Source: an uncultured Verrucomicrobiota bacterium (lineage in GTDB: Bacteria > Verrucomicrobiota > Kiritimatiellia > PWTM01). From it: a stretch of DNA of 64,000 nt. The notes under the pieces were generated by a model. The model searched no databases. It had not been told where the DNA came from and saw nothing but the letters and a program-made list of their open reading frames with translations. Of this stretch, positions 4,605 through 45,517 are shown piece after piece. How positions within the stretch are numbered: the stretch's first letter is position 1; every line of letters starts with the position of its first letter. The stretch lies in contig CAZSUU010000011.1 of the NCBI GenBank assembly GCA_964610105.1, positions 21,394-85,393 on the forward strand, read 5' to 3'. A program made the translations under genes and the position numbers.

Positions 4605-7465
<2,861 letters not shown>

Positions 7466-7511
7466 CGGGCCGCCGGAGGCGATGATCTGAAGCAGGAGCA
7501 GGGGACAAGAC

Positions 7512-10082: not shown

Positions 10083-10113
10083 GCAAACCGGGCGCGGGGG
10101 CGCCCGCGGGGCC

Positions 10114-12011: not shown

Positions 12012-12131
12012 CTCCAACCTGCAACTCCTCTGACTCTCACTCCCCATCACACTCTCCATCCTCATCGAAGCCGGAGTTGCCGGGTTTCAAACCTCTTCGT
12101 ATCGGACGCCGAGAAGATGTATATTCGTTTC

Positions 12132-12566: not shown

Positions 12567-12635
12567 GGTTGGGCGTCCGAAGCTCGAAATTGGGCGTCTC
12601 GTCGTTTCGTCGGTGGGGCTTGTTCCGCCTCCGCC

Positions 12636-15076: not shown

Positions 15077-15106
15077 GCGGCCATCCTAGCAGCCCGATCG
15101 CCAACT

Positions 15107-15192
15107 CTGAACACCGAACACCGAACACTGAACACTGAACACTGAACACTGAACACCGAACACTGAACACCGAACCCTGAACACCGAACCCC
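15107..15192. repeat. heptanucleotide tandem repeat (YGAACAC)x12
   Basis: ctgaaca/ccgaaca units repeated ~12 times, 31 bp upstream of the TauE start (minus) and ~150 bp upstream of the DUF1343 start (plus). Confidence 0.9.
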
Positions 15193-15343
15193 TCCTCGGA
15201 CTCGGGATTTCAAACTGCGAGCTTCAAATCCGGGCGCGCGCGCGTGTACGCTGTGCGGAGCCGCTGGACATCGGGGCCCGCCGGCGAGACGGTTCCGAAC
15301 ACCGGACGGGTGTGACCTCCCGCGGTCCGGGCATTGGAAGCGC

Positions 15344-24407: not shown

Positions 24408-25817
24408 ATGCGGATCGCGCATCGCAGCTTGTGGGCCGCGTTTCTGCCCGTCGCGTTTGTGGCGGCGGAGCGGCCGAACCTCATCCTGGTCACCGCCGAC
24501 GACATGGGGTTCCAGCTCGGCTGCTACGGGGACGCAGTGATGACGACGCCAAACATGGACCGGCTCGCGCGCGAGGGGCTCCGTTTCACTCGCGGCTACA
24601 TCACCCAGGCGTCGTGCAGCCCGTCGAGGAGCAGCATGCTCACGGGGCTCTACCCGCACCAGAACGGTCAGATCGGCCTGGCGCACCTGGGCTACTCGAT
24701 GCGACCGGACGTGCCGACGCTGCCCACCTTGCTGAAGAAAGCCGGCTACCGCACCGGCATCATCGGCAAGCTGCACGTGGCGCCGGAGAGCGCGTTTGAC
24801 TTCGACTACAAGGAAACCAACACGGCGGACACGCGCGACATGGCGAAGATTCGGGCGAAATGCGGGGCTTTCCTCGGCGGCGACGCGGCGAGACCGTACT
24901 TCCTCATGCTGAATTTCTTCGATCCCCACGACCCGCACATCCAGGACATCAACGGCAGCCCGAAGGCGAAGGTCGTCCCGGAGCAGGCGAAGGTCTATCC
25001 GTTCATGGGCACCAACTCGCCGGCGATCCGGCAACGGGTGGCGGAGTTCGCCACCTGTGTCAACCGCGTGGACGAGGGGGTGGGGGTGCTCCTGGACGTC
25101 CTGCGCGAGCGCGGTCTGCACACCAACACGGTCATCGTCGTGCTGGGCGACAACGGTCCGCCATTGCAGCGCGCGAAGGTGACCTCGTTCGAGCCGGGGG
25201 TAAACGTGCCGTTCATCGCCTGGGCGCCCGGCCGGATCGCGCCCCGCGTGGGCGACGAGATGGTGTGCTCCATCGACCTGCTGCCGACCTTCCTGGAACT
25301 GGCGGGCGCGGCGCCGCCGCCCGGTCTGCCCGGCCGCTCGCTGCTGTCACTATTCCGCGGCGCGCCGCCGCAGTGGCGAGAGTACCTGGCGACGGAGTAC
25401 ACGACCCACGAGCCCCGCAACCTGAATCCGCAGCGGAGCATTCGCGACAAGCACTACAAGCTCACCCTCACGCTACTCAAGGATCCCGCCTTCCAGTGGC
25501 CCGCGGGCATCGCGATCGCGGAGTACCGCAGGATCCAGCGCCGGGCCGCGACGGGCGAGTACATCGAGCTCTATGACGTGCGGACCGATCCGTATGAGTT
25601 CAGGAATCTCGCCGGCGCGCCGGAACACAAGGACGCGCAGGAACGTTTGCTTCGTGAGTTGAAACGATGGCGGGAGGAGACCCGCGATCCGCTGCTCGAC
25701 CCCGCCGCGCTGCAGGCGATGGTGCTGAAGGAGAAGGACGCCCCGCCCACGCCCGTGCCGGCGTGGAAGAGGGCGCGGGCGGCGGAGGCCGGGCGTGCGA
25801 AGGAGGCGGCAAAATGA
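24408..25817 (+). CDS. sulfatase (formylglycine-dependent arylsulfatase family)
   Basis: CSPSRSSMLTG (C-x-P-x-R), signal peptide, LILVTADDMG, GKLHV. Confidence 0.85.
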   Translation: MRIAHRSLWAAFLPVAFVAAERPNLILVTADDMGFQLGCYGDAVMTTPNMDRLAREGLRFTRGYITQASCSPSRSSMLTGLYPHQNGQIGLAHLGYSMRPDVPTLPTLLKKAGYRTGIIGKLHVAPESAFDFDYKETNTADTRDMAKIRAKCGAFLGGDAARPYFLMLNFFDPHDPHIQDINGSPKAKVVPEQAKVYPFMGTNSPAIRQRVAEFATCVNRVDEGVGVLLDVLRERGLHTNTVIVVLGDNGPPLQRAKVTSFEPGVNVPFIAWAPGRIAPRVGDEMVCSIDLLPTFLELAGAAPPPGLPGRSLLSLFRGAPPQWREYLATEYTTHEPRNLNPQRSIRDKHYKLTLTLLKDPAFQWPAGIAIAEYRRIQRRAATGEYIELYDVRTDPYEFRNLAGAPEHKDAQERLLRELKRWREETRDPLLDPAALQAMVLKEKDAPPTPVPAWKRARAAEAGRAKEAAK

Positions 25818-26300
25818 CACCTCCCGCGCTCGGATGCGCCGTCGGAGCAACGCTCGCATGGGCCGCCGCGCACGCCGTACGAGGAAAGCTGCGGCGTGCC
25901 GCTGCTTATCGCCGCGCCCGGCAAGGCCCACGGGACCGGCTGCCGGCGCGTCGTGGAATACGTGGACTTCTATCCGACGCTGGTGGATCTCTGCGGCCTG
26001 CCCGTGCGCGGCGACCTGGAAGGCCGCAGTCTGCGCCCGCTGATCGAGGATCTCGCCGCACCCTGGGACCATGCCGCGTTCAGCATCAACGCCCGCCATG
26101 ACCAGCCCGTCAATCTCGCCGTCAGCACCGACCGGTTCCGCTACATCGAATACGCCGACGCGAACAAGCCCGCCGAGTTGTATGACATCCAAGCCGACCC
26201 GCGCGAGTGGACGAATCTCGCCGGCGAAGCCAGGCATGCCGAGGCGCTGGCGGCGATGCGAAAGCTGGCGGCGGAACACCGACGGGAGTTCTGGAGGTAG
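25818..26300 (+). pseudogene. C-terminal fragment of a second sulfatase, in frame directly after the upstream sulfatase stop
   Basis: TPYEESCGVPLLIAAPGK...DFYPTLVDLCGLP...DPREWTNLA are sulfatase C-terminal motifs; no N-terminal/catalytic part. Confidence 0.55.
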
Positions 26301-26451: not shown

Positions 26452-27675
26452 TCAATCCAGCCATGTCCAGCCGGGGATGATGCGGACGGACCGGCCCTGC
26501 TCGACAAGTGTGTCGTCCTGGTCGAGAGTGATGACCCGCATCTCGCGGGCCTTGCCCTTCGCCGCACCGGGAAGCGCGGCGGCTTGCAGAAGGCCGCGCA
26601 GCTCCCGCCCGCGGTTCTCAGGCGTGAGGCGCGCGCAGCATTGGATGGCATGGGTGGCCGTGACGAAGTCGCACTCCCATTCGTGAGGCGCGGCGGCGAA
26701 GGCCGGGGCCGCTCCGGCGCGGCACAGGGCGAGCAGCACGGCGTTCTCCAGCGTGCGACCGAGGTCGGGGGTCGGGTTGGGGCTGTTGGCGGCGGCGAGG
26801 CCGGTGTCCACCGCGTAGTACTTGGGCGGGCTGGTGACACGCTGCTTGAACGATGCGCTGAACCGCGGCACCGCCAGCATCAGCCACGCATCCTGCAGAT
26901 ACCCGACCATGCGCCCGGTCTGTGCGACGGAGGGCAGGCCGAGACCCTTGGACAACGCCTGCAAGGACAGCGGCTGCCCCGTATGGGCGAGCAAGTGAAG
27001 CGCGAGGGTCATGAGCGGCCTCGCGGTGCGCAGGGAGTGCCGGGTCACGATGTCGCGGTGCACCACGTCCCTCAGCAACTCGCGCAGGAGCGTGCCGCCT
27101 TGCTGCGGGCCGGCGCGCAACGCGGCGGCGAATCCGCCCCGCATCAGATAATCCTCCAGCGCGGCGGCGCCCGCCTTCCGTCCGGTGAACTCGAGATACT
27201 CCTGAAACGAGAACGGATAGACCACGTGCGAGAGGTGGCGGCCCGTGAGTTTCGGTCCCATCTCCCGGCCGAGCAGGCTGGCGTTGGAGCCGGTGAGACA
27301 AACGCGGCGCCCGGCATCGAGCAGCGCGCGCACGAGCCGCTGCCATTCCGGCACTTCCTGCACTTCGTCGAGATACACCGCCGCCTTGGGGTGCCTGGCG
27401 TCCAGCACCGAGAGAAGCGTGGGGAAGTCCTCGGGCCCCATGCCGTAGAGGCGTGTGTCCTCGAGGTTGATGGTGACCGACGCGCCCTGGAGGCCGCGCC
27501 GCACCTGTCCTTGAAGGGTGCTCTTGCCGCAATGACGGACGCCCGCGAGCGCCAGCGCGTGCGAGGCCATCGCCGGTTTCCAACCGGGTTGGAAATGCCG
27601 GATCACCTCGTCCTCCACGCCGGGGGGTTCCGCGGGGTTGGACAGGACGATTTCCAGTGTTTCACGTAATAGCAT
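26452..27675 (-). CDS. AAA+ ATPase (AAA_14/DUF4143-type)
   Basis: P-loop GVRHCGKSTL, Walker-B VYLDEVQ, C-terminal DUF4143-like region. Confidence 0.7.
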   Translation of the reverse strand: MLLRETLEIVLSNPAEPPGVEDEVIRHFQPGWKPAMASHALALAGVRHCGKSTLQGQVRRGLQGASVTINLEDTRLYGMGPEDFPTLLSVLDARHPKAAVYLDEVQEVPEWQRLVRALLDAGRRVCLTGSNASLLGREMGPKLTGRHLSHVVYPFSFQEYLEFTGRKAGAAALEDYLMRGGFAAALRAGPQQGGTLLRELLRDVVHRDIVTRHSLRTARPLMTLALHLLAHTGQPLSLQALSKGLGLPSVAQTGRMVGYLQDAWLMLAVPRFSASFKQRVTSPPKYYAVDTGLAAANSPNPTPDLGRTLENAVLLALCRAGAAPAFAAAPHEWECDFVTATHAIQCCARLTPENRGRELRGLLQAAALPGAAKGKAREMRVITLDQDDTLVEQGRSVRIIPGWTWLD

Positions 27676-27689: not shown

Positions 27690-28040
27690 TCATGAAACAG
27701 CCGTGTGCAACTGTAGTGAACAGAAGTTTGACCCACGGTGGCCGGGCACGGAGTGCTCGCTGTCGGCGCGAGTCATGGTCGACGGGTTCCCGGGCGACCG
27801 CCGGTCGTGGGTGGGGCGCGGCGGATGGCGTCGCATCCACGGAAGCGCGTATTGCGGCGGGGGCCGTGGTGGGGCAGGATACCGGGCATGAGCCGACCGT
27901 TGCGATTGCCGGCGAAGGGCGGGCGGGATCACGGGACCGCCCGGGGAACGGGTGGAGGGCGCGCGGGCGCCGGGATGGAAGCTGCGTGCGCTTCACGGAG
28001 TGGTCGAGGCCTTTCGGCCTCCGCGTTCTGGAGACGGACC

Positions 28041-29657
28041 ATGATGCGCCCGTTTGAAGTGCTGACGATCCTCCTCGCCCTGGCGGCCCCGGCGGTCCAG
28101 GGCGCGCCGCGCTGGGAGATCAACTCGACCGCGGATGGCTGGCGACTGCTTCGCGACGGCACGCCTTCCTGCATCCACGGCGCGCACATCCCGTGGTACG
28201 AACGGCTCGACGCCCTCGGGCTCCGGACGGGGAACGACGACGCGGCCTTCCGGCCCGGCGCGACCGGCGCCCGCGTCTTCATGCGGTTCTTCGAGGTCGA
28301 GGGCGAGCCGGTCATCGACGACAATGGCACGCCGTCCGGCACGCCCGCCCGGCACGGCTTTTCGACGAACCACCGGTGCGACGACGTCCTGCGCGGCGTC
28401 GTCTGCACGCCCCCGCGCATCGCGATCCCGCCGACCTGCGAAGGCTATCCGGACGTCGACACGTATCGCGACCTGGAGTGCTGCCTGCTGGCCGGGGAAC
28501 CGGACGTCCGCCTCGACGCGGACTTCCCGGGCGGCAACGTGCGGGTGGTCGAGCGTGCGGGCGATACGTTCGTCGTGGCGCCGGACCTTCGCGACACGAA
28601 GGGCTGGTGGTTCCATTTCAACTTCCGCCTGTGCGCCCCGCCGGGGCGGACGGCGACGGTGGTCTTCGCCGAGCGGAATCCGATCGGTGCGCGCGGACCG
28701 GCGGCGAGCATAGACGGCGGGCGCACCTGGACGTGGATGGGCCGCGAAGCGGTGAGGAAGGGCGCGCGCGGCGGCAAGCCGGCGTGGTCGTTCGCGGCGG
28801 CGGTGCCGGAGGGCGCCGCGGAGGCGCGGTTCGCCTTCGCGCCGGTCTACCTGGAGACGCACTTCCGCGAATGGCTCGATGCCCACCGGACGAACGCCGC
28901 CCTGCGCGTGACCGAGCTCTGCCGCAGCCGCGGGGGCCGCCCGGTGGAACGGGTGAGGGCCGGGCGCCTGGACGGGGGGGCGAGGGGCAAGGTGCTGTTG
29001 ACCGCCCGGCACCACGCGTGCGAGTCGATGGCCAGTTACGCGCTGGAGGGATTCCTCGACGCCGTGCTCGCGGACGACGAAACGGGGCGGCGCTGGCGCG
29101 AGCGATGGGAGGTCGTCGCCATGCCCTTCGCCGACAAGGACGGCGTGGAGGCGGGCGACCAGGGCAAGAACCGCGATCCCCACGACCACAACCGCGACTA
29201 CAACGCGACGCCGCTCTACCCGGAGATCGCCGCCTGGATGAAGCTCGGCGAATCGGCGAAGGATACCGTGGTGTTCAGCCTCGACCTGCATTGCCCTTAC
29301 ATCGACGGGAAGTGGAACGATCGCGTGTACATCGTCGGATCGGAGAGACCGGACCATGCCGCGGAAGAGAAGGCCTTCGCGGCCGTGCTCGAGCGCGAGC
29401 GACGCGGGCCGCTGCCGTTCCGCGCGGCCGAATGCTATCTGCCGGCGGGCGAGGCGTGGAACAAGCCCGGGAACTACGCGGCGGGCCGTTCGAACGGAGC
29501 GTGGGCGAGGGACACGTTCTCCGGCGCGCGCCTCGCGGGCGCGATGGAGATCGCCTATGCCGACGCCCAGGGCGTGGAGGTGAACGCGGCGTCCGCGCGC
29601 GCGTTGGGCCGCGACCTCGCGTCCGCCGCGCTGGCGTACCTGGGGGATTCGCCATGA
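28041..29657 (+). CDS. secreted M14-like zinc carboxypeptidase family protein (putative)
   Basis: Signal peptide MMRPFEVLTILLALAAPAVQG; HxxE (ARHHACESM) and downstream His (SLDLHCPY) spaced as in M14 peptidases; DHNRDYN. Confidence 0.5.
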   Translation: MMRPFEVLTILLALAAPAVQGAPRWEINSTADGWRLLRDGTPSCIHGAHIPWYERLDALGLRTGNDDAAFRPGATGARVFMRFFEVEGEPVIDDNGTPSGTPARHGFSTNHRCDDVLRGVVCTPPRIAIPPTCEGYPDVDTYRDLECCLLAGEPDVRLDADFPGGNVRVVERAGDTFVVAPDLRDTKGWWFHFNFRLCAPPGRTATVVFAERNPIGARGPAASIDGGRTWTWMGREAVRKGARGGKPAWSFAAAVPEGAAEARFAFAPVYLETHFREWLDAHRTNAALRVTELCRSRGGRPVERVRAGRLDGGARGKVLLTARHHACESMASYALEGFLDAVLADDETGRRWRERWEVVAMPFADKDGVEAGDQGKNRDPHDHNRDYNATPLYPEIAAWMKLGESAKDTVVFSLDLHCPYIDGKWNDRVYIVGSERPDHAAEEKAFAAVLERERRGPLPFRAAECYLPAGEAWNKPGNYAAGRSNGAWARDTFSGARLAGAMEIAYADAQGVEVNAASARALGRDLASAALAYLGDSP

Positions 29658-32672: not shown

Positions 32673-33067
32673 CAGGGGGGCGGAATCCGCCGATGGACAC
32701 CCGATGGGTATGATGGGGACAGGCACTCTGCCCCTGCCGGAGCGGATCTTCAGCGGCGCTGAAAGTAGTAGATGACGCCCTGCCGGCCACCGAGGGTGTA
32801 TCCAAGCAACACATCCAGTTTCCGCAAAGCAACGTTATCCAGCGACTCTTCGATCCGAGGCAGCACGTCTGCCATCTTCTTCTTCACGGCAGTTTCCCTT
32901 CGACATGAAGTTTCTCGGTGGCGCCGTTATGAAAGCGGGCCTTGATTGTGCCGTCCGCCCCCCCCGAGCCAAGCGTTCATGCCGTAGGCGGCAATCGGTC
33001 CGCCGATTTGCCGGAGAGTCCCCGGGCGGGAGCGCGGCCCGGGGATAGGGCTACAAGGCTCGATCAG

Positions 33068-36000
33068 TCAATTCTTGTCTCTGAGCAGCCGGATGCCGAA
33101 GCCCGATGGTTTTACGTGATGGCTGTCACCCAGGTATCTGGACCAGTTGTGGACACTGCTCAGCCATCCCCTATCTGAAGATTGAGGTGTGGAGCTCCAC
33201 ATGTAGCAGCTTCCCGTCAAATTGTGAAAGCTTCCATCGCACCAGCGGGCGCCGTTGGGGAGGCAGTTGAAACCGGTCTTGTTGTTCAATTCCGGACGCT
33301 CGCTGATGAGCAATTCCTTTTCCCAGACATTTCCTGATTTATCTGTGATCCGGTACTGCCAGCCAATTCTTCCCGCCACCGATTTGCCGAGCTTGTTTTC
33401 CTTTTCCTTTTCTTGATTGTAGTCGCCCTTCCATTCGGGGTATTGGGTTCCGTCAAAGTTATATCCATTGCGTACCAGGTACCGGCGAAAGGCCAGTTGT
33501 TCCTCAACCGAGGGCACATGCCAGCCTTTGGGCGCAATCCTCGGATGGCTGGCGGCCCACCAGTTGTACAGCAATCCGTTCTTTCCATTTTCGGGTTTGT
33601 TTTCGTTGTAGCACCATGCCGGGGACGAAAGAGCTTGCCATTCCTTGTCGTCAGTGACATTGGGAATGGGCGTGCCGTCGCTGTACTTGGTGGTTTTGAG
33701 ACCTGTGGTGGTCCACACGAAGTCGCCGATCTTCACCGTCTGGTAGACATTCCCGTCGGCATCCGTGACGGTACCCGCGCAGTCGATCATCTCGATGGCG
33801 ATTTCGCCGGTGTCCTGACCGGGCACATGGATCTGATAGTCAAGATAGCCCTCTTTGGTGACCGTGATCACATCCCTGCGATAGTCAATGTAGCCCTTGT
33901 CGGTGACCGTCTGGGCTACCGGCGCAAGACCGACCAGAACCATGCTGAAATTCCCGTTTGCATCCGTCGTCGTGGATTGGCCGGTGCTTTCCACCTTCAC
34001 ACAGGCTCCAGCCAGGCCGGCCCCGGATGAGTCCTTCACTGTTCCGCGGATGCTTGAGGCCTGCGCAGATTCATCCGCGTCACGCAGCAGCCGGATGCAG
34101 AACCCCGATCGGTCGTGATGCTGGTTGTTGCCGTATTTGGCGAACCGGCTGTGAATGCTGCTCATGTGCGAGCCTTCACCCTCACCCTTGGTCGTGCTCC
34201 ACCAGTAAACGCTCTTGCCCATCGCATGGAAACTTCCGTCGTTCCAGCGGCTGCCGGCAGGCAGCGCCGTAAAACCGGCGCGGTTGTTGTTGGTCAGGTC
34301 GTGGCCGGCGTTGCCAGGAGTCGGATCGGAATCCCAGTCGGTCTTGGCCGTCATCGCTTTGGCGACCTTGTTGCCTTCTTTGGTTCCGTCGTGGTTGTAT
34401 CCGTTGGCAATCAGGTAGTCCCGCAGCGCCATTTGTTCCTCATGCGTCGGCACCTTCCACCGCTTGGGAGCGATTCTGTCGGAACTGGCGGCCCACCAGT
34501 TATAGAGTGCTCCGTATTTCTCTCCATTGGCGGGTCTATTTTCGTAATAGCAGAAGCCCGGACTGGCCAGCGCTTTCCATTCGGCGTCACCGGTCACATG
34601 AGGAATCGGCGTGCCGTCATTGTATTTTGTTGTCCTGAGGTTTTCGACGGTCCACACCTGATTGCCAATCTTCACTGTGTGATAGATGTTCCCATCGGCA
34701 TCCTGCACGGTTTCCGCAGAGGTGGCGCGACCGGTTGCGTCCGGGTCCTCCGCAGCGAGGTTGAGCGTCGTTGCGTTGAAGAACTCGATGCACTGGGCGA
34801 GTTTGGGCGTGGATTCAAACCAGTCGTGCGAGTATTCCAGACCGATCATCGTGGGCTTGATGCCCTGGCGGTGCAGCTCGCGGAAGAACTCCTCGGATTT
34901 GCCAATGCCCGTTCCCCACGGCACGTCGTGGCCGTTGCGGCCCGGTTCGTGCAGGTCGTGCATCTGCACGGTGATCACGCGGTCCCTCAGCACGCGCACG
35001 GCGTCGATCGGATCGATGCCCGAGCGCAGCCAGTAACCGAGGTCGGGTGCGGCGCCGATCCGCTTGCTCCGGCCCTCGCAAGCTTTGAGCACACCTTCGG
35101 GACGCCAGTAAAGCGGGGAGATGTCCTTGCCGTGATTGTGAATGGCCACGTTGATGCCGTATTCGTTTGCGAATGTGTCGAGCAGATCGAGGTGCTCCGG
35201 TTTGGGCTCACAGATGAAGGTTTCGAAGCCCATCTTGCGTCCGAACTCAAATAGCCTGCGACACCCGGCGTCGTCCGTGGGAATGTCCTGCGCGTAGTAG
35301 GTCAGCATCCGCACGCCGCCGGATTCCATTTTGAACCGGATCTGGCGCAACTCGTCGTCCGTGAGGTTCTGATCGAAGTTCTTCGGGATGTCCTTGCTGA
35401 CCGGCTGCAGGAAGCTCAGTCCGCCGATGTAAGGCAGGCCAAGCTCGGCGGTCTTCTCGATGGTCTCAAAGAAGGTGAACTTGTGAAACGTGTAGGCCTC
35501 CACGCCGAGCCTCCAACCAAGCTTCTCCTGCGCGAGGATGGCCGGCGAGAGCTTGGCGCTCGGTGTGGTGGGCGCAGGCAGGTCGCCGAGAACGAACTGG
35601 GACGCGTCGAGGTAGAACTGGAGCATCTTCGGATTCCAGAAGACCTGCGGGTTGTGCCCCATCGTTGCGTAGAAAACCCGCCCGCGGCCGTAGGTGCGCA
35701 CCCAGGCGAGCGCATAGTCCTTGTCCGGCCGCAGGACGGGATCGCCCGGCTTGATGCCCGACAGATCGGTCTTCACCGTATCCATGCTCAGCAGCACGCG
35801 AACGCGCTGGCGGGAGTAGGGTTCGTGAAATCGGAAGAACTCCTCGGTCATCTCGAAACCCTCGCCGGCAAACGCCCGGTTGAGGGGATGATCCGCGTCG
35901 TCAATCTTGATCCAGGCCCGTTCGTTGGCGTCTCGGTGAAATGCGCCGCGCGTCCCGATCATGTGACCGAACTCCGGCCAATCTTCAACCGGCGGCCATT

Positions 36001-36430
36001 GCCAGTTCATGAAGGCGATGGACGTTCCATGGACGCCCATGAGTCCTCCCCCGCCGGTGACGAACTCCAGGAGATTCCGCCGCAGGTCGGCGTTGGTGAA
36101 GCAATTGCCGATGGTGTTGTTGAGGAACACGGCGTCGAATTCGCGGAGCGCTTCGCGCTGGAAGACGGCCGGATCCGCGCTGACCGTGGCGCTAAACGCC
36201 CCCGTTCTCTCCCCCATCCGGGTGAAGGCTTCGTTGGCGTGCGCGATGGACTTATGCCCGCCATAGCCCACGTTGCGCGTGAAGATCAGCAGGCGGCGCG
36301 GCCGGGCGGGCTGGACGGTCGCCTTCTCCGGCACGGCGTGTTCGATGAGTTCGCGCTCCGCGGCGTCTTGGACCAAGGGCGCCGCCGCGTTCGCCGGCGG
36401 GCTGAGCATCGTCGCAAGGGCCAGGATCAT
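33068..36430 (-). CDS. multidomain fusion: ThuA-like domain + xylose-isomerase-like TIM barrel + CarbopepD_reg-like + two FISUMP (Fibrobacter succinogenes major paralogous, TIGR02145-like) domains
   Basis: ThuA (LLIFTRNVGYGGHKS, GGGLMGVHGTSIAF), TIM barrel (LGVEAYTFHKF, GFETFICEP, INVAIHNHG), two FISUMP repeats (DADGNIYHTVKIGNQVWTVENL..YNDGTPI..GALYNWWAA..GFCIRLLRD; DADGNVYQTVKIGDFVWTTTGL..GLLYNWWAA..GFGIRLLRD). The 3' third of the gene is ~47-55% GC vs ~68% elsewhere. Start MILALATMLSPPANA signal, residue 23 of ORF 33068..36496. Confidence 0.8.
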   Translation of the reverse strand: MILALATMLSPPANAAAPLVQDAAERELIEHAVPEKATVQPARPRRLLIFTRNVGYGGHKSIAHANEAFTRMGERTGAFSATVSADPAVFQREALREFDAVFLNNTIGNCFTNADLRRNLLEFVTGGGGLMGVHGTSIAFMNWQWPPVEDWPEFGHMIGTRGAFHRDANERAWIKIDDADHPLNRAFAGEGFEMTEEFFRFHEPYSRQRVRVLLSMDTVKTDLSGIKPGDPVLRPDKDYALAWVRTYGRGRVFYATMGHNPQVFWNPKMLQFYLDASQFVLGDLPAPTTPSAKLSPAILAQEKLGWRLGVEAYTFHKFTFFETIEKTAELGLPYIGGLSFLQPVSKDIPKNFDQNLTDDELRQIRFKMESGGVRMLTYYAQDIPTDDAGCRRLFEFGRKMGFETFICEPKPEHLDLLDTFANEYGINVAIHNHGKDISPLYWRPEGVLKACEGRSKRIGAAPDLGYWLRSGIDPIDAVRVLRDRVITVQMHDLHEPGRNGHDVPWGTGIGKSEEFFRELHRQGIKPTMIGLEYSHDWFESTPKLAQCIEFFNATTLNLAAEDPDATGRATSAETVQDADGNIYHTVKIGNQVWTVENLRTTKYNDGTPIPHVTGDAEWKALASPGFCYYENRPANGEKYGALYNWWAASSDRIAPKRWKVPTHEEQMALRDYLIANGYNHDGTKEGNKVAKAMTAKTDWDSDPTPGNAGHDLTNNNRAGFTALPAGSRWNDGSFHAMGKSVYWWSTTKGEGEGSHMSSIHSRFAKYGNNQHHDRSGFCIRLLRDADESAQASSIRGTVKDSSGAGLAGACVKVESTGQSTTTDANGNFSMVLVGLAPVAQTVTDKGYIDYRRDVITVTKEGYLDYQIHVPGQDTGEIAIEMIDCAGTVTDADGNVYQTVKIGDFVWTTTGLKTTKYSDGTPIPNVTDDKEWQALSSPAWCYNENKPENGKNGLLYNWWAASHPRIAPKGWHVPSVEEQLAFRRYLVRNGYNFDGTQYPEWKGDYNQEKEKENKLGKSVAGRIGWQYRITDKSGNVWEKELLISERPELNNKTGFNCLPNGARWCDGSFHNLTGSCYMWSSTPQSSDRGWLSSVHNWSRYLGDSHHVKPSGFGIRLLRDKN

Positions 36431-36514
36431 CCTATCCCACGATGGTCTCCGGCGATGGCTCCGGGGGTCCGCGTGTCGTTCGTTCATGTCGCGCATGTGT
36501 TTCTCCTTCGCGTG

Positions 36515-39022
36515 CTACCGCGGCCGGAAGCGGTATGTGTGCCCCGCGACTGCCGCGAACACCAGGCATTCTCCGTTCGTGCTGTCGGCTCGAACCGCCA
36601 CGGGATCGGAGCTTCGGGTCTCGCGTACCACGACCTCGCGGCCCGGCCAGGGATTCATGATGCGGCAGACGTGGTCCCGCCGCGGCCGCACTTCGAGGAA
36701 ATAGACTCCTTGGGCATTCCTCGCGGCGGAAACGAGGAAGCCGCCGCGGGCCTGGAAGTTGTGGAATGCCATTTCGGTGTCGGGCGGGACCGCCGGAAAC
36801 AGGTGCATTCGCCCGCTGCGGCTGTTGAGCAGGGCTTCGGCGTCGAAGCCGTCCCACTTCGACTGAGCAGGGACGCCCAAGAGGATCAGTGTTTGCGGCG
36901 TGGTTCCCGCTGATTCCAGCTTCCGCGCCGTGCGGAGCATCATCTCCCTCTGCTCCTTCGGGGAATCCAGATTGACTTCGTCGGCCAGGATCGTCAGGTA
37001 CTCCACCGCCTCGCCAAAGTGATCGCCGGGAACATTCTTCGGCTCCACGCCTTGGATCGCGCAATACACCGGCCCGTCGGCAGTTTCCAAGGTAGGATAG
37101 GGGGCCAGGTGGTCGGCGACTTCGCGCCACCTGCCGCGCAGGTCCGCATCCACGCCGAGAATCTCCGACGCCTCGGCCGTACGGCTCAACGCCCAGCGGA
37201 ACATGCACAGCGAGCTGATCACGTCCTTGTTGCGCGCGAATTCCGCGTAATAGCCCCACTTCTCTGGCTCCATGGATGGGATGATGTGGTAGCAGCCGTC
37301 GTCACCCTTCTTCGCGTAGGCCGCGTAGAAGAGGGCCATCTCGCGCATGAGCGGGTAGCACTCCTTGCGCAGGAACTCGATGTCGCCGCCGTAGTCCCAC
37401 TCGTCCCAGACCGGCTTGACGGTCTGGGCCATCGTATCGAGGCACAATTCGAGCGTGAGGGTCGTGTGAACGTACTTGTCTGGCTTGATCGGCGGCTGGT
37501 AGCCGTGGACCAGGCACATGCCGGGCATGCCGAACATGTTCTTCGCGTTGTCCCGCGCGCCCGGCCGCCAGTGCCACACGAGTTGCTTCCACATGTCCTG
37601 GTGGTCGGCCCAGTTGCGGACGAAGTACTTGCTGGTGAAGATCTCGTTGTAGCACGGAGCGCTGCTCCAGAGCTGCGCGTCCCGCTCCGGTGGCACGTAG
37701 GAGGCGCTGCACTCGTACTGGCGCATGTCGGTCTTGGTGCCGCCGCCATGCCCGTCGGCGCAGCTGCGGTAGATGCTCAGAATATCCTCCGTGCACTGCG
37801 TGCCGGTCACACCTTTGAACACGCGACCATTCTCCCGCTTGTCATAGAACGCATTCCACCACGCGGTGTTCTCCCTGACCACGCCGTCGAAGCCGGCGGC
37901 CTCGGCGGCGGCCAGGCGCTCCCTGGCCAGGGCAATCACGTCCGTGCCGTCCATTGTCGTGACAATGGTGACCAACGCCTCCAGCTTCCCGTCGCCCGCC
38001 GGCGTGAAGGTCGCCGTAGCGGCGGCGCCCGGCGCCGCGGCAATGTGTTTGTCCGGCGGCGGCGTGCCAAGCCCCGTCTCGCCTTCCACCGTCTTCACGT
38101 CCACTTGGCCCGGCGTGATGACCACGCCCATCAGCACGTATTCGAAGCCCTGCGGGAACGTCTTCTCCGGTGGCATCTGCTGGCGAATCCAGAAATACCG
38201 CCCGTCCTTGCCGCTGGTCGGCGGATCCATCGGATAGTTGAACGCGTGGTCCGCTTCGGTTCCTTTCTTCGTGTACGTCTTGCCGTCTTCGCTCATGTAT
38301 CTCAGGTGGGCCGTGTCGCGGTGACGATAGAGCCGCAGCCAGAGCGGGGTGTGAATGCCTGAGAACTTGCCGCGGACGGCGTAGAGGTTACTCGTCATCC
38401 CCAGCACGTATTCCAAGCTGGCCTTGGCGTCGCCCTTGGTCACCTGCAGTCTGGTCACGCCATTGGCGCAGCTCTGGGTGGCGTCCGGCGCGGCGGCGCC
38501 GGCCAGCGGGTCCATTCCCACGATAATCTGGCCGACGGGTTTCAGACACGGCATCGAGTATTCGATGGGTTGCCGATAGGGATCGTAAAAGCCGCCTTCC
38601 TTGCGCAGGTAGCCGTACCCCCGGGGACGCTGGCAATCGTGGGCCTTGCCTTCAAAACCCTTGTTGGCCGGGGAGAAAGCGCCGTCCGTGATCTCCTGCA
38701 AGGTCGGGGCGGTCAGACCCCGCGAGTTGACCCGCCGGTCCCAGACGTTGTTCTTGGTCAGGCTGATGGTGATCCGGTCCGGCGGCCCCCAGAGCGTGGT
38801 GCGCATCTTGAGGCTGCAAATGGTCATCGCGCTGCCATGGGGATAGCTGTTCCAGTTCGGCTGGGGATCCCCGGGCTCGAGCCTGTTTCCGAAGGAGACG
38901 GATTGGGCCGCCTCTCGCAGCGGGATTTCCCGCTCCCACGGAAGCGGTTGGGCCGCCAAGGCCGAAAGTGAAATCCCGAGGAGCAGGATTGCCGGGAACG
39001 CCAGTTCGTTGGGGCGTTTCAT
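36515..39022 (-). CDS. secreted GH95/DUF5703-like (six-hairpin) glycoside-hydrolase-family protein, paralog 1
   Basis: Signal peptide MKRPNELAFPAILLLGISLSALAA; shares LTKNxxWD and six-hairpin-like C-terminal region with 53651..55966; family assignment tentative. Confidence 0.65.
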   Translation of the reverse strand: MKRPNELAFPAILLLGISLSALAAQPLPWEREIPLREAAQSVSFGNRLEPGDPQPNWNSYPHGSAMTICSLKMRTTLWGPPDRITISLTKNNVWDRRVNSRGLTAPTLQEITDGAFSPANKGFEGKAHDCQRPRGYGYLRKEGGFYDPYRQPIEYSMPCLKPVGQIIVGMDPLAGAAAPDATQSCANGVTRLQVTKGDAKASLEYVLGMTSNLYAVRGKFSGIHTPLWLRLYRHRDTAHLRYMSEDGKTYTKKGTEADHAFNYPMDPPTSGKDGRYFWIRQQMPPEKTFPQGFEYVLMGVVITPGQVDVKTVEGETGLGTPPPDKHIAAAPGAAATATFTPAGDGKLEALVTIVTTMDGTDVIALARERLAAAEAAGFDGVVRENTAWWNAFYDKRENGRVFKGVTGTQCTEDILSIYRSCADGHGGGTKTDMRQYECSASYVPPERDAQLWSSAPCYNEIFTSKYFVRNWADHQDMWKQLVWHWRPGARDNAKNMFGMPGMCLVHGYQPPIKPDKYVHTTLTLELCLDTMAQTVKPVWDEWDYGGDIEFLRKECYPLMREMALFYAAYAKKGDDGCYHIIPSMEPEKWGYYAEFARNKDVISSLCMFRWALSRTAEASEILGVDADLRGRWREVADHLAPYPTLETADGPVYCAIQGVEPKNVPGDHFGEAVEYLTILADEVNLDSPKEQREMMLRTARKLESAGTTPQTLILLGVPAQSKWDGFDAEALLNSRSGRMHLFPAVPPDTEMAFHNFQARGGFLVSAARNAQGVYFLEVRPRRDHVCRIMNPWPGREVVVRETRSSDPVAVRADSTNGECLVFAAVAGHTYRFRPR

Positions 39023-39224
39023 AAGACCTCCATCGCGTCGTTCATTGCGCCCTTGAGTCCGCAGCCCGCCAGCGGTCGAACACCGCCCGCACCTCGGCCA
39101 CCTGTATTGCCACGTGGACATATTCGTGCCTGCCGGCGTGAAACTCGGCGCTGTGCCTTCGTGTTCGTCTCCATATTGGATGAGGGCCAGACCATGCCGA
39201 CACGTGGGGAAGGTGTGTGCCGGG

Positions 39225-40196
39225 CTACTCCATACCGGCCATCGATCCGGCCAGAAGCCGACGGGCCTGCTCCTCGGCGAAGGCGATGTTCTTGGCCATG
39301 TCCTCCTGCAGGGCCGGAGTGTCGTGCTCGAAATCGATGGCGATCACCCCCTTGTAGCCCTGGCGCTTGAGTTCCTTGAGCGTGTTGGCGCAATCGGCCT
39401 GACCTTCGCCGATGACCGTGTTGCGCGAGTCGAGATCGCCCTTCTTGAGCACGTCCTTGAGGTGGAAGCAGAGGATCCGGCCTTCGAGCTTCCGCAGGCA
39501 GTGCACCGGGTCCAGGTCCGAACGCGCCCATTGCCCGACATCGGCGCACGAGCCGATGAGCCCGCTCCGGTTGGCGCAGACGCCCAGCACGATTTCCGGA
39601 CTCCAATACTCCGATCTGGTCCTTTGATGATTGTGGAGCGCCAGCATCATTCCGTACTCCGCGCAGAGCTTCTCGATCAGGTCGTGCGACCCGGCGGGCG
39701 GCTCCGCGACGATGACGTCCGTGCCAAAGCCCTTCCAGAACTCGAAGAGCCGCTTCGCCTGGTCCGGCTTGCCGTTGAAATCGGCGAACACACTGGGGAT
39801 GGACAGGCCGAGGTCGGCGATCCTCGCCTTGAACTCCTTGCGCGCGCCGTCCGGCATGCCTTCGTTCGCATTCTGGCCCGGCCACTTGGGGCCGAGCTTG
39901 AGATTGGATCGCACTTCGAAATGACGAAGCCCGACCGCGGCCGCCTTCTCCAGCGCTTCGAATGCGGAGAAGCGCCGGTACGTGTAGTGCTGGACGCTGA
40001 GCTTCCAGCCGAGTTTCGCGGCAGCGGGCTGGCCGGGACGCGACGCATCGGCGTGCGCGGAAATCCGCGAATCCAGGATCAGGCCCAGCGCCAGGGCGCC
40101 GCCCCGGCCAAGGAAGTCCCGACGGTTCCATTTCGGAGCGCTTCGGCGGTCCAGGTCCGCTGCATCGTTCACCCGCTTTGCCCATGGCGCCTTCAT
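39225..40196 (-). CDS. TAT-secreted sugar phosphate isomerase/epimerase (xylose-isomerase-like TIM barrel)
   Basis: RRDFLGRGGALALG TAT signal; AP-endonuclease-2/xylose-isomerase-like barrel motifs (LALHNHQ, IDFEHD). Confidence 0.75.
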   Translation of the reverse strand: MKAPWAKRVNDAADLDRRSAPKWNRRDFLGRGGALALGLILDSRISAHADASRPGQPAAAKLGWKLSVQHYTYRRFSAFEALEKAAAVGLRHFEVRSNLKLGPKWPGQNANEGMPDGARKEFKARIADLGLSIPSVFADFNGKPDQAKRLFEFWKGFGTDVIVAEPPAGSHDLIEKLCAEYGMMLALHNHQRTRSEYWSPEIVLGVCANRSGLIGSCADVGQWARSDLDPVHCLRKLEGRILCFHLKDVLKKGDLDSRNTVIGEGQADCANTLKELKRQGYKGVIAIDFEHDTPALQEDMAKNIAFAEEQARRLLAGSMAGME

Positions 40197-44858: not shown

Positions 44859-45212
44859 TCAGGCGTCAAGGATCGGGATGCCGTACGAATGAAAGACGGC
44901 GTCGCGCGTCACCACGATCAGGTTCTCGACCTCGGCCTGCGCGATCAGCATGCGGTCGAACGGATCGGCGTGATGCGGCGGCAAGCCCTGCGCGCGCTCG
45001 GCGTGCTCCCGGCGGATGTCGAGCAGCCCGATGCCGTCTGATTGCAGGACATCGATATAGCCGGGTGGAAGTCGGAGCTTGTTCCTCGCCATCTTCAGAC
45101 CGATTTCCCAGATGGAAGCGACACTCAAATGCGCCTGGTTGCGTCCGTCGGAGATGGCGGACCGGGCGGCGGGCGACAAGCGGCCGGGATCGTCGATCCA
45201 CCAGATCGCCAC
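44859..45212 (-). CDS. PIN-domain VapC-like toxin (canonical start missing)
   Basis: SVASIWEIGLK, HHADPFDRMLIAQA, LIVVTRD PIN motifs. The called GTG start omits the conserved N-terminal LLLDSH strand, which is encoded upstream in frame without an ATG/GTG/TTG. Confidence 0.55.
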   Translation of the reverse strand: MAIWWIDDPGRLSPAARSAISDGRNQAHLSVASIWEIGLKMARNKLRLPPGYIDVLQSDGIGLLDIRREHAERAQGLPPHHADPFDRMLIAQAEVENLIVVTRDAVFHSYGIPILDA

Positions 45213-45517
45213 GTGCGAATCCAGGAGGAGTTTCGCGGCCTTCCGCCCTCGGCGACCTTCGTCCGCCTGGGTTTCGGAAGCGGGTAGAGCGGGGCCGAGG
45301 CCGCCCCGGCGAGTTCATCCCCCTGCCAGCAATCGGGCGTCTCGATGACCCTTCCCTTCAGTTGTCCGCCTTTTCGATGGTGGACCGGCGCCGCATAGGG
45401 CGTCATCAGAACGACCGGTTTTCCGGCCTTTCCGATGATCACGGTCTCGCCGGCCAGCACATCGTCCACGAGTCGGGACAGGTGTGTTTTGGCCTGCTGG
45501 ATGTTCACCTGTTTCAC
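45125..45517 (-). CDS. Phd/YefM-family antitoxin (ORF reads ~90 nt into the toxin gene)
   Basis: MKQVNIQQAKTHLSRLVDDVLAGETVIIGKAGKPVVLMTPY typical of Phd/YefM antitoxins; GTG start; 130-aa ORF is longer than the usual ~80 aa because no stop precedes the toxin. Confidence 0.5.
   Translation of the reverse strand: MKQVNIQQAKTHLSRLVDDVLAGETVIIGKAGKPVVLMTPYAAPVHHRKGGQLKGRVIETPDCWQGDELAGAASAPLYPLPKPRRTKVAEGGRPRNSSWIRTWRSGGSTIPAACRPPPGPPSPTDATRRI

Follow-up and report, generated by a model that had tools for sequence, protein, structure and literature searches.

How one reading frame came to hold two halves of different base composition is the question that this locus raises. The window (the whole 64,000-nt stretch of DNA that was analysed) comes from a host that is Kiritimatiellota-like, with a GC content of about 62-75% per kb over its entire length; the earlier note had proposed that the 3' half of the gene was acquired horizontally and joined to a resident sugar-metabolism gene. 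The explanation we consider probable is that of a mosaic gene with a mobile FISUMP-CarboxypepD_reg-FISUMP tail, encoding an exported 3-keto-glycoside enzyme with lectin-like targeting. Directly supported are its architecture and mosaic structure, the ages of its parts relative to one another, the purifying selection acting on it, the FISUMP fold and the conserved gene context.

The gene and its domains

This mosaic gene is intact and functional, and its uninterrupted ORF occupies 33068-36496 on the minus strand, stop codon (33068-33070) included, and encodes 1142 amino acids counted from the first ATG; it is the third and final gene of a three-gene minus-strand unit. That there is a single ORF had been recognized, but the length of 1120 aa and the end at 36430 given for it correspond to a start at the alternative codon Met23, while a start coordinate of 32715 takes in some 350 nt of 3' intergenic DNA. 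From N to C terminus the order is signal peptide, ThuA, TIM barrel, FISUMP1, CarboxypepD_reg and FISUMP2, and profile searches place the ThuA, TIM-barrel, CarboxypepD-like and both FISUMP domains above curated cut-offs, as had been predicted. The leader (aa 1-46, 36359..36496, minus strand), read directly from the translation, consists of a basic RRRPSWDR, a short hydrophobic core MILALATML and then ANA/AAP; judging from homologues, which have clear Sec-type leaders with ANA/AD or AQA/ED ends at the same place, it is probably an export signal. Neither a lipoprotein signal nor a T9SS tail was seen in the 1142-aa protein.

The ThuA domain (type A, aa 68-301, 35594..36295, minus strand) matches PF06283 at 1.8e-35 (123.5 bits) and PDB entry 4JQS at 3e-8, and its best relatives are 70-73% identical; the family contains two divergent ThuA types, about 21% identical to each other. 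The xylose-isomerase-like TIM barrel (34766..35530, minus strand; AP_endonuc_2, PF01261, 42.9 bits) matches PDB 3P6L over aa 323-577 with an E value of 2.4e-48 and has relatives 80-88% identical. Its significant solved relatives are only uncharacterised structural-genomics proteins (3P6L, 4KW2 and 3LMZ), and sequence comparison of the TIM domain with characterised 3-keto-glycoside or C-glycoside lyases gave no match (E > 1). The N-half as a whole is 65-77% identical to Verrucomicrobia/PVC-type proteins, mostly without FISUMP.

A linker with the mosaic junction (aa 578-596, 34709..34765, minus strand), located by composition and by the boundary of DNA homology, leads into the shared C-terminal cassette, 1660 nt at 33067..34726 on the minus strand, delimited by blastn, GC3 and dN/dS. 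It comprises, all on the minus strand, FISUMP1 (aa 597-808, 34073..34708), a transthyretin-like beta-sandwich spacer, CarboxypepD_reg (aa 809-897, 33806..34072), and FISUMP2 (aa 898-1142, 33071..33805), the last set apart by its dS, its identity to relatives and a clade of its own. The Fib_succ_major profile matches in two stretches (200.5 bits), and TIGR02145 scores 139.9 bits; PF13620 matches aa 815-887 of the spacer at 42 bits, and in a Foldseek comparison the spacer resembles SusC NTE domains as well as the transthyretin-like domain of carboxypeptidase D (E 7.8e-5). The FISUMP fold is C-type-lectin/FGE-like; the two FISUMP domains are paralogues 70% identical, with an insertion of roughly 50 aa in FISUMP2. 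Since dN/dS is 0.08-0.36, the cassette is functional and under purifying selection.

Neighbouring genes

Upstream of the ORF, and separated from its start by 18 nt, lies a co-directional GH95-like gene (36515..39121, minus strand; Pfam Glyco_hydro_95_cat/C), whose real start is probably near 39022; the gene call on L001 gives it 835 aa. With its counterpart in the syntenic relative L020 it shares 74% identity, and with that of a Bacteroidales MAG, L010, 76% amino-acid identity. The unit begins with a stand-alone xylose-isomerase-like TIM-barrel gene (39225..40196, minus strand; PF01261), 73% identical to TIM1 of L020. Between the two, at 39045..39155 on the minus strand, tblastn reveals what is left of another TIM-barrel gene, its final 37 codons (68% identical over that length); this TIM2 relic and the gene order in L020 together point to deletion of the Gfo/Idh/MocA and TIM2 genes in the window. 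The sole Gfo-like gene in the window is 32 kb off (about 439-1227) and 28% identical.

On the other side, the intergenic region between convergent genes (32673..33067) is ordinary DNA of about 60% GC, where a 3' flank of about 47-55% GC reaching to about 32715 had been described. It contains a 41-aa ORF (32750-32875, minus strand), also called on L003 and L004, lies outside the shared cassette and showed no homology to the fetched sequences. Beyond the cassette are convergent GH10 genes with GC3 of 0.79-0.90.

The compositional break

The GC drop within the gene is real and mostly synonymous, though smaller than the earlier note had it: the N-half has 63.3% GC rather than about 68% (68-72% is reached only in the first ~300 nt of the gene), and the C-half averages 56.3% rather than about 47-55%, with 49-63% in 180-nt windows. 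Of the 7-point difference between halves, about 2 points are due to amino-acid composition and about 5 to synonymous codon choice. With the window's own codon usage as reference, GC3 is 0.834 in the N-half vs. 0.848 expected, and 0.697 in the C-half vs. 0.841 expected. ThuA (GC3 0.835) and the TIM barrel (0.832) have host-like codon usage, while the values for FISUMP1, CarboxypepD_reg and FISUMP2 are 0.72, 0.685 and 0.684; among other genes, none of 341 windows of 552 codons has a GC3 below 0.783. A single GC3 change-point falls after codon 586, at position 34738 (LLR 15.9, permutation p <= 0.0005), and it coincides with the TIM/FISUMP linker and with the point, 34726 (aa 591), at which DNA homology to the Bacteroidales cassette begins.

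From that point the cassette is colinear with copies in 44-46% GC Bacteroidales-labelled MAGs, where it stands behind a different ThuA domain, and the homology ends at the stop codon. By blastn its nucleotide identity is 82.8% across 1685 nt for both L010 and L021, and 80.9% for L005; at the protein level the whole length of the C-half aligns at 78-83% identity with proteins of the order ThuA(B)-FISUMP-CPD-FISUMP, encoded on contigs of 44-50% GC, three of them labelled as Bacteroidales or resembling these. No mobile-element or recombination signature was found flanking the cassette.

Relative ages of the parts

Comparison of dS between the window and L020 (59.5% GC) gives 1.35 for the GH95-like gene and 1.37 for the stand-alone TIM gene, the flanking genes, 1.07 for ThuA and 0.83 for the fused TIM domain, but only 0.30 for CarboxypepD_reg and 0.28 for FISUMP2. 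The synonymous divergence of CarboxypepD_reg-FISUMP2 is thus 4-5 times below that of flanking orthologues, which indicates a recent exchange of the tail. FISUMP2 is 91-92% identical in amino acids and about 91% in nucleotides to L020 and to L021 (45% GC) alike, its dS to the two ranging from 0.28 to 0.38 with local pS down to 0.08-0.10; the dS of CarboxypepD_reg to L021 is 0.55. In the N-half, pS is reduced as well over aa 310-430, and low dS in short tracts could partly reflect nucleotide-level constraint.

FISUMP1 differs from the rest of the tail. It has no counterpart in the syntenic orthologue of L020, and its dS is 1.1-1.4 against every relative, so that synonymous sites are saturated. 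These sequence comparisons mark FISUMP2 as the segment exchanged most recently and FISUMP1 (dS of at least 1.1) as older than CarboxypepD_reg-FISUMP2 (dS 0.3), with more than one event; a horizontal origin of FISUMP1 is suggested by its composition and by its closest amino-acid similarity to Bacteroidales-type copies. A separate horizontal history of the 3' half is accordingly upheld by the junction, the identities and dS, though not as the single event first envisaged. In the mosaic history we favour, the 5' 1.77 kb (leader, ThuA and TIM barrel) would carry the codon usage of the Kiritimatiellota-like host and a divergence from relatives roughly as in neighbouring genes, FISUMP1 would have joined earlier, and CarboxypepD_reg-FISUMP2 would have been gained or replaced recently from an intermediate-GC source. 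Being recent and of such a source, the latter segment would not yet have taken on host codon usage, hence the GC drop.

Distribution of the family and module shuffling

The domain combination, first thought unusual, is less so than it appeared: at least 11 further, distinct protein clusters contain ThuA+TIM+FISUMP fusions, and it is only the full five-domain order that appears specific to the window's species. This clade of FISUMP domains has other fusion partners as well, namely the second ThuA type (ThuA-B), DUF1080, DUF6807 and Laminin_G_3, and in the protein P0242 a P0003-type FISUMP1 occurs together with a P0240-type FISUMP2. In neighbour-joining, midpoint-rooted trees FISUMP2 falls in a clade of its own, with the FISUMP1-type domains as sister group. 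The cassette is probably drawn from a pool of modules that recombines among enzymes of one gene-cluster type and moves between Bacteroidales and bacteria of the PVC group. The N-half and the neighbouring GH95-like gene are also part of a cluster common to several phyla, so that "resident" should be read as compositionally ameliorated, as the host-like codon usage indicates, and not necessarily as ancestral.

Source of the cassette and alternative explanations

A low-GC proximate donor in Fibrobacter or Bacteroidota, as had been supposed, is not supported: the GC3 of CarboxypepD_reg-FISUMP2 is 0.63-0.68 in every host, whether of 45% or 67% GC. This constancy, and the drift of the Bacteroidales copies from GC to AT, suggest from the sequences that the source was of intermediate GC and that the Bacteroidales copies are recipients; only for the FISUMP family in its entirety would an origin in the FCB group be plausible. 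A more specific proposal, which refines the favoured explanation without contradicting it and which we advance tentatively, as somewhat short of an even chance, is that mid-GC PVC-group bacteria are the original home of the cassette, and probably of the entire GH95-like/TIM/ThuA cluster, and that Bacteroidales received it from there, with the 67% GC window lineage obtaining CarboxypepD_reg-FISUMP2 from a PVC relative of about 59% GC and not from Bacteroidota or Fibrobacter. The window's segment is indeed nearest to L020 in nucleotides (89.4%, vs. 87% for the Bacteroidales copies), and FISUMP2 GC3 exceeds that of several neighbour genes in the lower-GC loci L021 and L041 (0.39-0.64) and is near the 0.70-0.78 of PVC-type contigs of about 59-60% GC. 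Polarised substitutions in Bacteroidales run GC to AT vs. the reverse at 42/17, 24/10 and 8/0, and at 12/3 on the shared branch, while the window copy leans from AT to GC (15 vs. 7); these counts are small. The clade's fusion partners are most diverse on high-GC contigs, and the similarity of the GH95-like neighbour to that of the Bacteroidales MAG fits as well. However, the taxonomy of L020 derives solely from synteny and PVC-like neighbouring genes, and the wider FISUMP family is overwhelmingly FCB-group, with named matches in Paludibacter, Chitinispirillaceae, Bacteroidetes and Chlorobiaceae, and with 17-119 copies in each of the Fibrobacteres genomes (PMC4704652). The pathway-linked clade, too, nests among FCB-type CarboxypepD_reg+FISUMP proteins, in a midpoint-rooted NJ tree only.

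The break might instead owe nothing to transfer, the GC drop coming from the amino-acid composition of FISUMP or codon selection and the similarity from purifying selection on an old fusion. The richness of FISUMP in N, K, Y, T and W does lower GC1 and GC2 and accounts for about 2 of the 7 GC points, its GC3 is somewhat reduced in several other hosts of about 60% GC, and ThuA+TIM+FISUMP1-type fusions co-diverge over many relatives. Yet GC3 is still 0.14 under expectation once conditioned on amino acids, and it is not intrinsically low in FISUMP, since the fused FISUMP of L039, from a 68% GC host, has the same GC3 (0.93) as the rest of that gene. Nor can purifying selection lower dS to the values seen in CarboxypepD_reg-FISUMP2, and nucleotide identity of about 91% between 67% and 45% GC genomes of different phyla is incompatible with vertical descent, because SecDF is no more than 62% identical within the host's own phylum (the best non-self match is 61-62%, with none above 62% outside its own species). 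We regard this reading as very unlikely. An assembly or binning chimera, with high-GC and lower-GC reads joined at about 34.7 kb, is suggested by the sharpness of the break, its place at a domain boundary and the origin of the window as a metagenome-derived NCBI contig, but is extremely improbable: gene calls on 9 contigs give the identical protein, and four independently assembled contigs from four sequencing runs match the window at 100% over 5.8-9.4 kb, across the gene, its junction and both flanks, with no join artefact. Moreover, the reading frame is unbroken, high-GC host genes (GH10) resume past the cassette, the nearest lower-GC sequences match the cassette at just 83% identity and have a lower GC3, and the ThuA+TIM+FISUMP junction is found again in many diverged homologues; a chimera is thus excluded, as far as assemblies can show. 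There is next to no likelihood that a diversity-generating retroelement targets the FISUMP domains and that their composition results from mutagenic retrohoming, as no template/variable repeat pair occurs in 30-40 kb, the sole repeats being the FISUMP1/FISUMP2 paralogy, the annotated window genes include no reverse transcriptase, and FISUMP2 is conserved between hosts, its C-terminal part included.

Possible function and relation to known systems

All catalytic and binding activities of the mosaic protein are put forward here as proposals. Glycoside C3 oxidation, 1,2-elimination and hydration have been demonstrated for proteins of the Gfo/Idh/MocA and DUF1080 families and for "sugar phosphate isomerase" TIM barrels (bioRxiv 10.1101/2024.03.25.586180; PMC10628242; PMC8121099), and 3-keto-disaccharides are formed by ThuAB (PMC8121099). 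The loci of the gene's relatives contain GFO_IDH_MocA, AP_endonuc_2, ThuA, 3keto-disac_hyd (DUF1080), PTE and GH95-like genes. The protein would be exported; glycosides oxidised at C3 (3-keto) would be the substrates of its TIM barrel, a metal-dependent 1,2-lyase or hydratase, and its ThuA domain would partner a ThuB-like Gfo/Idh/MocA C3-oxidoreductase. The two FISUMP domains, with the transthyretin-like spacer between them, may bind a glycan or surface component and thereby bring the enzyme to its substrate in the manner of a carbohydrate-binding module. The adjacent Gfo/Idh/MocA gene of the relatives is missing here, with only the TIM2 relic left, which counts against this proposal.

The 3-keto clusters of Bacteroides (BT2156-BT2160) and Alistipes (AL1-AL5) (bioRxiv 10.1101/2024.03.25.586180; PMC8121099) and the GlycDH-OGE-HYD system of Agrobacterium (PMC10628242) share with the window gene or its relatives' loci the TIM barrel, Gfo/Idh/MocA and DUF1080 components, export signals and a setting among glycoside hydrolases. 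They differ in that the window TIM domain belongs to another, uncharacterised subfamily and is fused to ThuA and lectin-fold domains which the described systems lack, that GH95-like and PTE genes are constant companions, and that the adjacent oxidoreductase gene has been deleted. With the ThuAB glucoside 3-dehydrogenase of the Sinorhizobium/Agrobacterium thuEFGKAB operon (PMC8121099) it has in common the PF06283 domain, the link to 3-keto sugars and, in its relatives, accompanying ThuB-like genes; ThuA, however, is here one domain of a large exported protein rather than a separate subunit beside an ABC transporter. Like the FISUMP surface proteins (TIGR02145, PF09603) of Fibrobacterota, Bacteroidota and Chlorobiota, it has bona fide domains of this kind, two in number, and its CarboxypepD_reg+FISUMP unit is that of many FCB-type proteins of about 430 aa, 40-52% identical; in contrast to these, the window domains are appended to the C-terminal ends of enzymes, in a bacterium of the PVC group, and make up a separate clade confined to proteins of the window's cluster type.

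Shuffling of carbohydrate-binding modules and sub-genic lateral transfer are general phenomena among carbohydrate-active enzymes. The tail described here resembles them in being a non-catalytic, beta-rich module of binding type that is carried on different catalytic domains and exchanged independently, although its C-type-lectin/FGE-like fold belongs to no classified CBM family. Here a portion of a gene has clearly moved between phyla; the exchanged segment can be dated by dS against the rest of the same gene and crosses phyla at about 91% nucleotide identity.

Structure of the mosaic gene and its product

The mosaic gene (33068-36496, (-)) is a single unbroken ORF of 1142 codons counted from the first ATG. 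An earlier note, made from the sequence alone, had also recognized a single ORF but gave its product as 1120 aa, the length obtained by starting at Met23 (position 36430). Every domain named there was recovered in Pfam and NCBIfam searches at scores above the curated cut-offs. A ThuA domain (PF06283) matches its profile end to end at aa 68-301 (123.5 bits vs. a cut-off of 33.4) and is followed by a xylose-isomerase-like TIM barrel (PF01261, AP_endonuc_2; 42.9 bits vs. 31.1), placed at aa 323-577 by its match to the nearest solved relative, PDB 3P6L (E 2.4e-48). The tail consists of two FISUMP stretches, at approximately aa 597-808 and 898-1142 (PF09603, 200.5 bits, cut-off 33.9; TIGR02145, 139.9 bits vs. 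41.65, also in two stretches), separated by a CarboxypepD_reg domain (CPD; PF13620, 42 bits vs. 32.3) at aa 815-887.

According to published descriptions (PMC5758913, PMC4704652), FISUMP proteins lie outside the cytoplasm and frequently bear a lipoprotein signal. In the translation, the N-terminus of the mosaic protein shows a basic stretch followed by a short hydrophobic core and an ANA/A site, with no lipobox; since unmistakable Sec-type leaders occupy this position in its homologues, the protein is likely exported.

The FISUMP domain is structurally similar to solved proteins of the C-type lectin (CLec)/FGE fold, the matches including many classical C-type lectins. The CPD has the fold of a transthyretin-like beta-sandwich, matched in Foldseek to the transthyretin-like domain of carboxypeptidase D (E 7.8e-5, TM 0.77 on the target) and also to the N-terminal extension (NTE) domains of SusC. 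A two-domain model of CPD and FISUMP2 was mediocre (pLDDT 67, with an insertion specific to FISUMP2 unmodelled), and its fold search gave the transthyretin-like domain only; a PDB sequence search with the C-terminal half gave a marginal SusC NTE match and no FISUMP match. The simplest reading, by analogy, is that the tail would act as a binding or targeting module comparable to a carbohydrate-binding module.

The combination of domains, which the earlier note took to be unusual, recurs: ThuA, TIM barrel and FISUMP occur together in at least 11 protein clusters. The ThuA+TIM core of approximately 630 aa makes up a large family with variable additions, among them FISUMP, a second ThuA type, FISUMP with the second ThuA, and FISUMP with ThuA and DUF6807, as well as DUF1080, HEAT repeats, GH28, GDSL and PTE. 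DUF1080 and Laminin_G_3 also precede FISUMP domains of the clade to which those of the mosaic gene belong. From the sequences compared, it is the exact five-domain order that seems confined to the mosaic gene's own species cluster. Protein P0242, with the order ThuA(B)-FISUMP-CPD-FISUMP (B being the second ThuA type), has a FISUMP1 of the PVC-type subclade, as in protein P0003, and a FISUMP2 of the Bacteroidales-type subclade, as in protein P0240; the cassettes thus recombine among themselves.

Host and gene neighbourhood

The window contains the housekeeping genes yajC, secDF, recJ, uvrC, thiC and that for a sigma-70 factor. SecDF is 95% identical within the species and otherwise at most 61-62%, the named matches lying in Kiritimatiellae/Kiritimatiellia and Verrucomicrobia; by these matches the host is a deep-branching member, with about 67% GC, of Kiritimatiellota or the wider PVC group. 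Three co-directional genes end with the mosaic gene, which follows a TIM-barrel gene (39225-40196, (-)) and a GH95-like gene (36515-39121, (-)), lying 18 nt downstream of the latter. The surroundings are those of a glycan-degradation locus, with a sulfatase, two GH10 genes, GH106, GH2, a second GH95-like gene, GH78 and GH43.

Overlapping the 5' end of the GH95-like ORF as annotated are 37 codons left from a second TIM-barrel gene (39045-39155, (-)). At the same place (4915-7436) on L020, a syntenic relative's contig of 59.5% GC, there is a Gfo/Idh/MocA gene together with a second TIM gene, so that in the window lineage the oxidoreductase neighbour and this TIM gene have been deleted, the latter down to the relic. 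Only one Gfo/Idh/MocA-like coding sequence was detected anywhere in the window (approximately 439-1227, (-)), 32 kb from the mosaic gene and with 28% identity to the oxidoreductases of L020. The GH95-like neighbour, with a host-like GC3 of 0.84, is 76% identical in amino acids over 832 aa to a gene of the Bacteroidales MAG contig L010 (10428-12917) and 74% to that of the PVC-type L020, and from these identities it seems that the cluster as a whole, beyond the FISUMP tail, passed between phyla at an earlier date.

Several other features of the window may be recorded. An ORF of 134 aa (25896-26300, (+)), immediately after a complete sulfatase gene (24408-25817) and adjoining an AAA_14/DUF4143 ATPase gene (26452-27675, (-)), matches only the C-terminal part of sulfatases (SGSH_C) and resembles a truncated sulfatase gene. 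Between the GH106 and DUF5703 genes, a small gene (45125-45517, (-)) encodes a Phd/YefM antitoxin domain; its GC3 of 0.73 is the lowest whole-gene value in the window. Two ORFs, at 27738-29657 (+) (639 aa) and 59271-60917 (+) (548 aa), have host-like GC3 and no Pfam match at E <= 0.1; GC3 in the former steps from 0.72 to 0.92 at codon 107, and its start may therefore be over-extended.

Two histories within one gene

The fall in GC along the gene that the earlier note described is confirmed in kind, its figures having been too extreme: the N-terminal half has 63.3% GC rather than approximately 68%, and the C-terminal half averages 56.3% rather than 47-55%. When the codon usage of the window's 32 other genes is applied to the amino-acid sequence, the C-terminal half is predicted to have 61.7% GC and a GC3 of 0.841, vs. 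an observed GC3 of 0.697; GC3 in the N-terminal half fits its prediction (0.834 vs. 0.848). The break is real and mainly synonymous. By maximum likelihood, a single change-point in GC3 is placed after codon 586 (LLR 15.9, permutation p <= 0.0005), and no window of 552 codons in the other genes has a GC3 below 0.783, so that the C-terminal half lies below them all and is atypical in composition once its protein sequence is controlled for.

The affinities of the two halves differ accordingly. A scan of reference genomes and tblastn found the N-terminal half (aa 20-596) to be 65-69% identical to FISUMP-free proteins of Verrucomicrobia and Anaerohalosphaeraceae MAGs. On the other side, an ORF of L010 (locus 46% GC) matches aa 590-1141 with 81% identity over 560 aa, and aa 543-1141 are 74% identical to an ORF of a Bacteroidetes MAG contig, L005 (44% GC). 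A protein search with the C-terminal half alone gave four full-length matches, 78-83% identical, all with the order ThuA-FISUMP-CPD-FISUMP; their ThuA is approximately 21% identical to that of the mosaic gene, and the TIM barrel is absent from all four. A scan of metagenome contigs with exact peptide patterns yielded only 16 loci, mostly duplicates of the genome-contig matches. In DNA, homology to the Bacteroidales-type loci runs from 34726 (aa 591), only four codons from the GC3 change-point, exactly to the stop codon (82.8% over 1685 nt). The C-terminal half is thus incongruent with its host, being 78-83% identical in amino acids and 83% in nucleotides to genes of Bacteroidales MAGs, vs. at most 62% for SecDF within the host phylum. 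As for a vehicle, neither flanking repeats nor IS elements nor an integrase were found, the homology stopping exactly at the linker and the stop codon; no donor was identified among the compared sequences. The 3' flank of the gene has no homology to any compared locus and no convincing terminator; the opposite strand has one weak site resembling a terminator. An ORF of 41 aa (MADVLPRIEESLDNVALRKLDVLLGYTLGGRQGVIYYFQRR) lies in this intergenic region (32750-32875, (-)) and is also called as a gene on contigs L003 and L004.

Composition, cross-phylum identity and the heterogeneity of dS described below agree in supporting the mosaicism and the horizontal acquisition of the 3' part that the earlier note proposed. 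Other origins of such a break were considered. An assembly chimera, with a join near 34.7 kb, is ruled out: the identical mosaic protein is called on nine contigs, and four contigs from four separate sequencing runs, independently assembled, match the window at 100% over 5.8-9.4 kb including the junction and both flanks, with high-GC host genes resuming beyond the 3' end of the gene. That the GC drop might come from amino-acid composition alone is excluded by the expected-GC calculation and by L039, a contig from a host with 68% GC, where GC3 in a fused FISUMP1-type domain is 0.93, wholly like that of the host. Sequence coding for FISUMP is thus not inherently low in GC3, and fusions of long standing do ameliorate. 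A diversity-generating retroelement (DGR) target is likewise ruled out, with no template/variable repeat pair in 30-40 kb and no reverse transcriptase among the annotated window genes.

Relative ages of the segments

Synonymous divergence (Nei-Gojobori dS) was compared between the window and L020, which has the order TIM, GH95-like gene and orthologue as in the window. The flanking GH95-like and TIM genes have dS of 1.35-1.37, and within the mosaic gene the values are 1.07 for ThuA, 0.83 for TIM, 0.30 for CPD and 0.28 for FISUMP2, with local pS in FISUMP2 down to 0.08-0.10. Against the Bacteroidales loci, FISUMP2 has dS of 0.33-0.38 (approximately 91% nucleotide identity) and CPD 0.55; FISUMP1 is saturated, at 1.1-1.4, and is missing from the L020 orthologue. 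Purifying selection is evident throughout (dN/dS 0.08-0.36), though it cannot explain the low dS. Given the dS contrast and the missing FISUMP1 in L020, the tail was therefore built up in two or more layers, FISUMP1 being the older and CPD-FISUMP2 exchanged recently, so that the single acquisition envisaged in the earlier note is wrong or unproven. Near the start of the TIM barrel, at aa 310-430 (35207-35566, (-)), pS to L020 is 0.29-0.39, vs. approximately 0.55-0.65 elsewhere in the N-terminal half; another recombination tract, smaller than the first, may account for this, or else a constraint at the nucleotide level.

Direction of exchange and origin of the FISUMP domains

That FISUMP is typical of the FCB group is borne out by the named matches (Paludibacter, Chitinispirillaceae, Bacteroidetes, Chlorobiaceae), the copy number per Fibrobacteres genome being 17-119 (PMC4704652). 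The FISUMP1 and FISUMP2 types linked to the pathway make up a single clade in an NJ tree of 49 domains rooted at the midpoint, amid CarboxypepD_reg+FISUMP proteins of approximately 430 aa; an ultimate FCB origin is plausible.

A low-GC FCB donor, as had been suggested, is nevertheless disfavoured for the latest event by the constancy of GC3 and by the polarity of substitution. FISUMP2 has a GC3 of 0.63-0.68 in all hosts examined (45%, 50%, 59.5% and 67% GC), and several neighbouring genes on the lower-GC contigs lie below this (0.39-0.52 in L021, of 45% GC, and 0.44-0.64 in L041, of approximately 50%). Parsimony-polarised changes in CPD-FISUMP2 of the Bacteroidales copies, GC to AT vs. AT to GC, number 42/17, 24/10 and 8/0, with 12/3 on the shared branch; the window copy has 15 AT to GC vs. 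7 GC to AT. The nearest DNA relative of the window's CPD-FISUMP2 is L020, at 89.4%. Together these point to an unsampled source of intermediate GC, plausibly a PVC-type relative of approximately 59-60% GC, with the Bacteroidales copies as recipients. On L041, which carries a ThuA(B)-FISUMP gene, the GFO, TIM, ThuA-DUF6807 and GFO genes (2247-7992) have GC3 of 0.60-0.64 vs. 0.44-0.54 for several neighbours (8118-17385), a hint that on this contig the pathway genes, too, were imported from a source of higher GC.

Possible function

The relatives' loci in both phyla repeatedly hold GFO_IDH_MocA, AP_endonuc_2, ThuA, 3keto-disac_hyd (DUF1080), PTE and GH95-like genes. GFO_IDH_MocA genes, candidates for a ThuB-like dehydrogenase that would act with ThuA to form 3-keto-glycosides, adjoin the homologues on five relatives' contigs (L020, L022, L039, L041 and L010); none adjoins the mosaic gene. 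Gfo/Idh/MocA enzymes carry out C3 oxidation of glycosides, 'sugar phosphate isomerase' TIM barrels are 3-keto-glycoside 1,2-lyases, and DUF1080 proteins are lyase/hydratases (bioRxiv 10.1101/2024.03.25.586180; PMC10628242); the 1,2-lyases/hydratases have conserved Mn2+ ligands and a catalytic His (PMC10628242). In the Bacteroides BT2156-2160 cluster such chemistry takes place in the periplasm, and ThuAB makes 3-keto-disaccharides (PMC8121099); we found nothing in the literature on ThuA/ThuB biochemistry beyond the summary in that paper. The recurrent gene context and this published chemistry suggest, by analogy, that the mosaic protein would be an exported enzyme of an oxidative glycoside-cleavage pathway. 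In a phmmer search of all PDB chains, the significant matches of the TIM barrel are all uncharacterised proteins, the AP_endonuc_2 entries 7BVR and 7XRF appearing only at E > 1. By sequence, this search relates it to no characterised member of the 3-keto-glycoside 1,2-lyases/hydratases (AL1/BT1, AtOGE, C-glycoside deglycosidases).

Significance

This is a well-resolved case of sub-genic module exchange across phyla, within a recurrent, uncharacterised glycan-degradation cluster. One reading frame joins three age layers, with ThuA+TIM host-like, FISUMP1 older and CPD-FISUMP2 recent; this last, the youngest, is approximately 91% identical in DNA across genomes of 45%, 59.5% and 67% GC that belong to different phyla. 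The case also draws attention to that cluster because FISUMP domains of C-type-lectin fold have been joined there, time and again, to enzymes of the recently described 3-keto-glycoside pathway, and it yields a testable hypothesis on the function of FISUMP, namely glycan targeting, and on that of ThuA-type domains. Should the hypothesis prove wrong, there would still be a tidy instance of domain shuffling in a polysaccharide-degradation locus, useful though no surprise to specialists.

A bolder proposal, which we consider rather improbable, is that the FISUMP clade is a dedicated substrate-recognition cassette, swappable between enzymes of an uncharacterised oxidative (3-keto) glycan system (GH95-like, Gfo/Idh/MocA, TIM lyase, ThuA, DUF1080 and PTE) and exchanged sub-genically between the PVC group and Bacteroidales. 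If so, exchanging the lectin-fold tail would redirect one and the same set of catalytic domains to new glycans, and specificity would evolve through cross-phylum traffic in domains rather than through transfer of whole genes.
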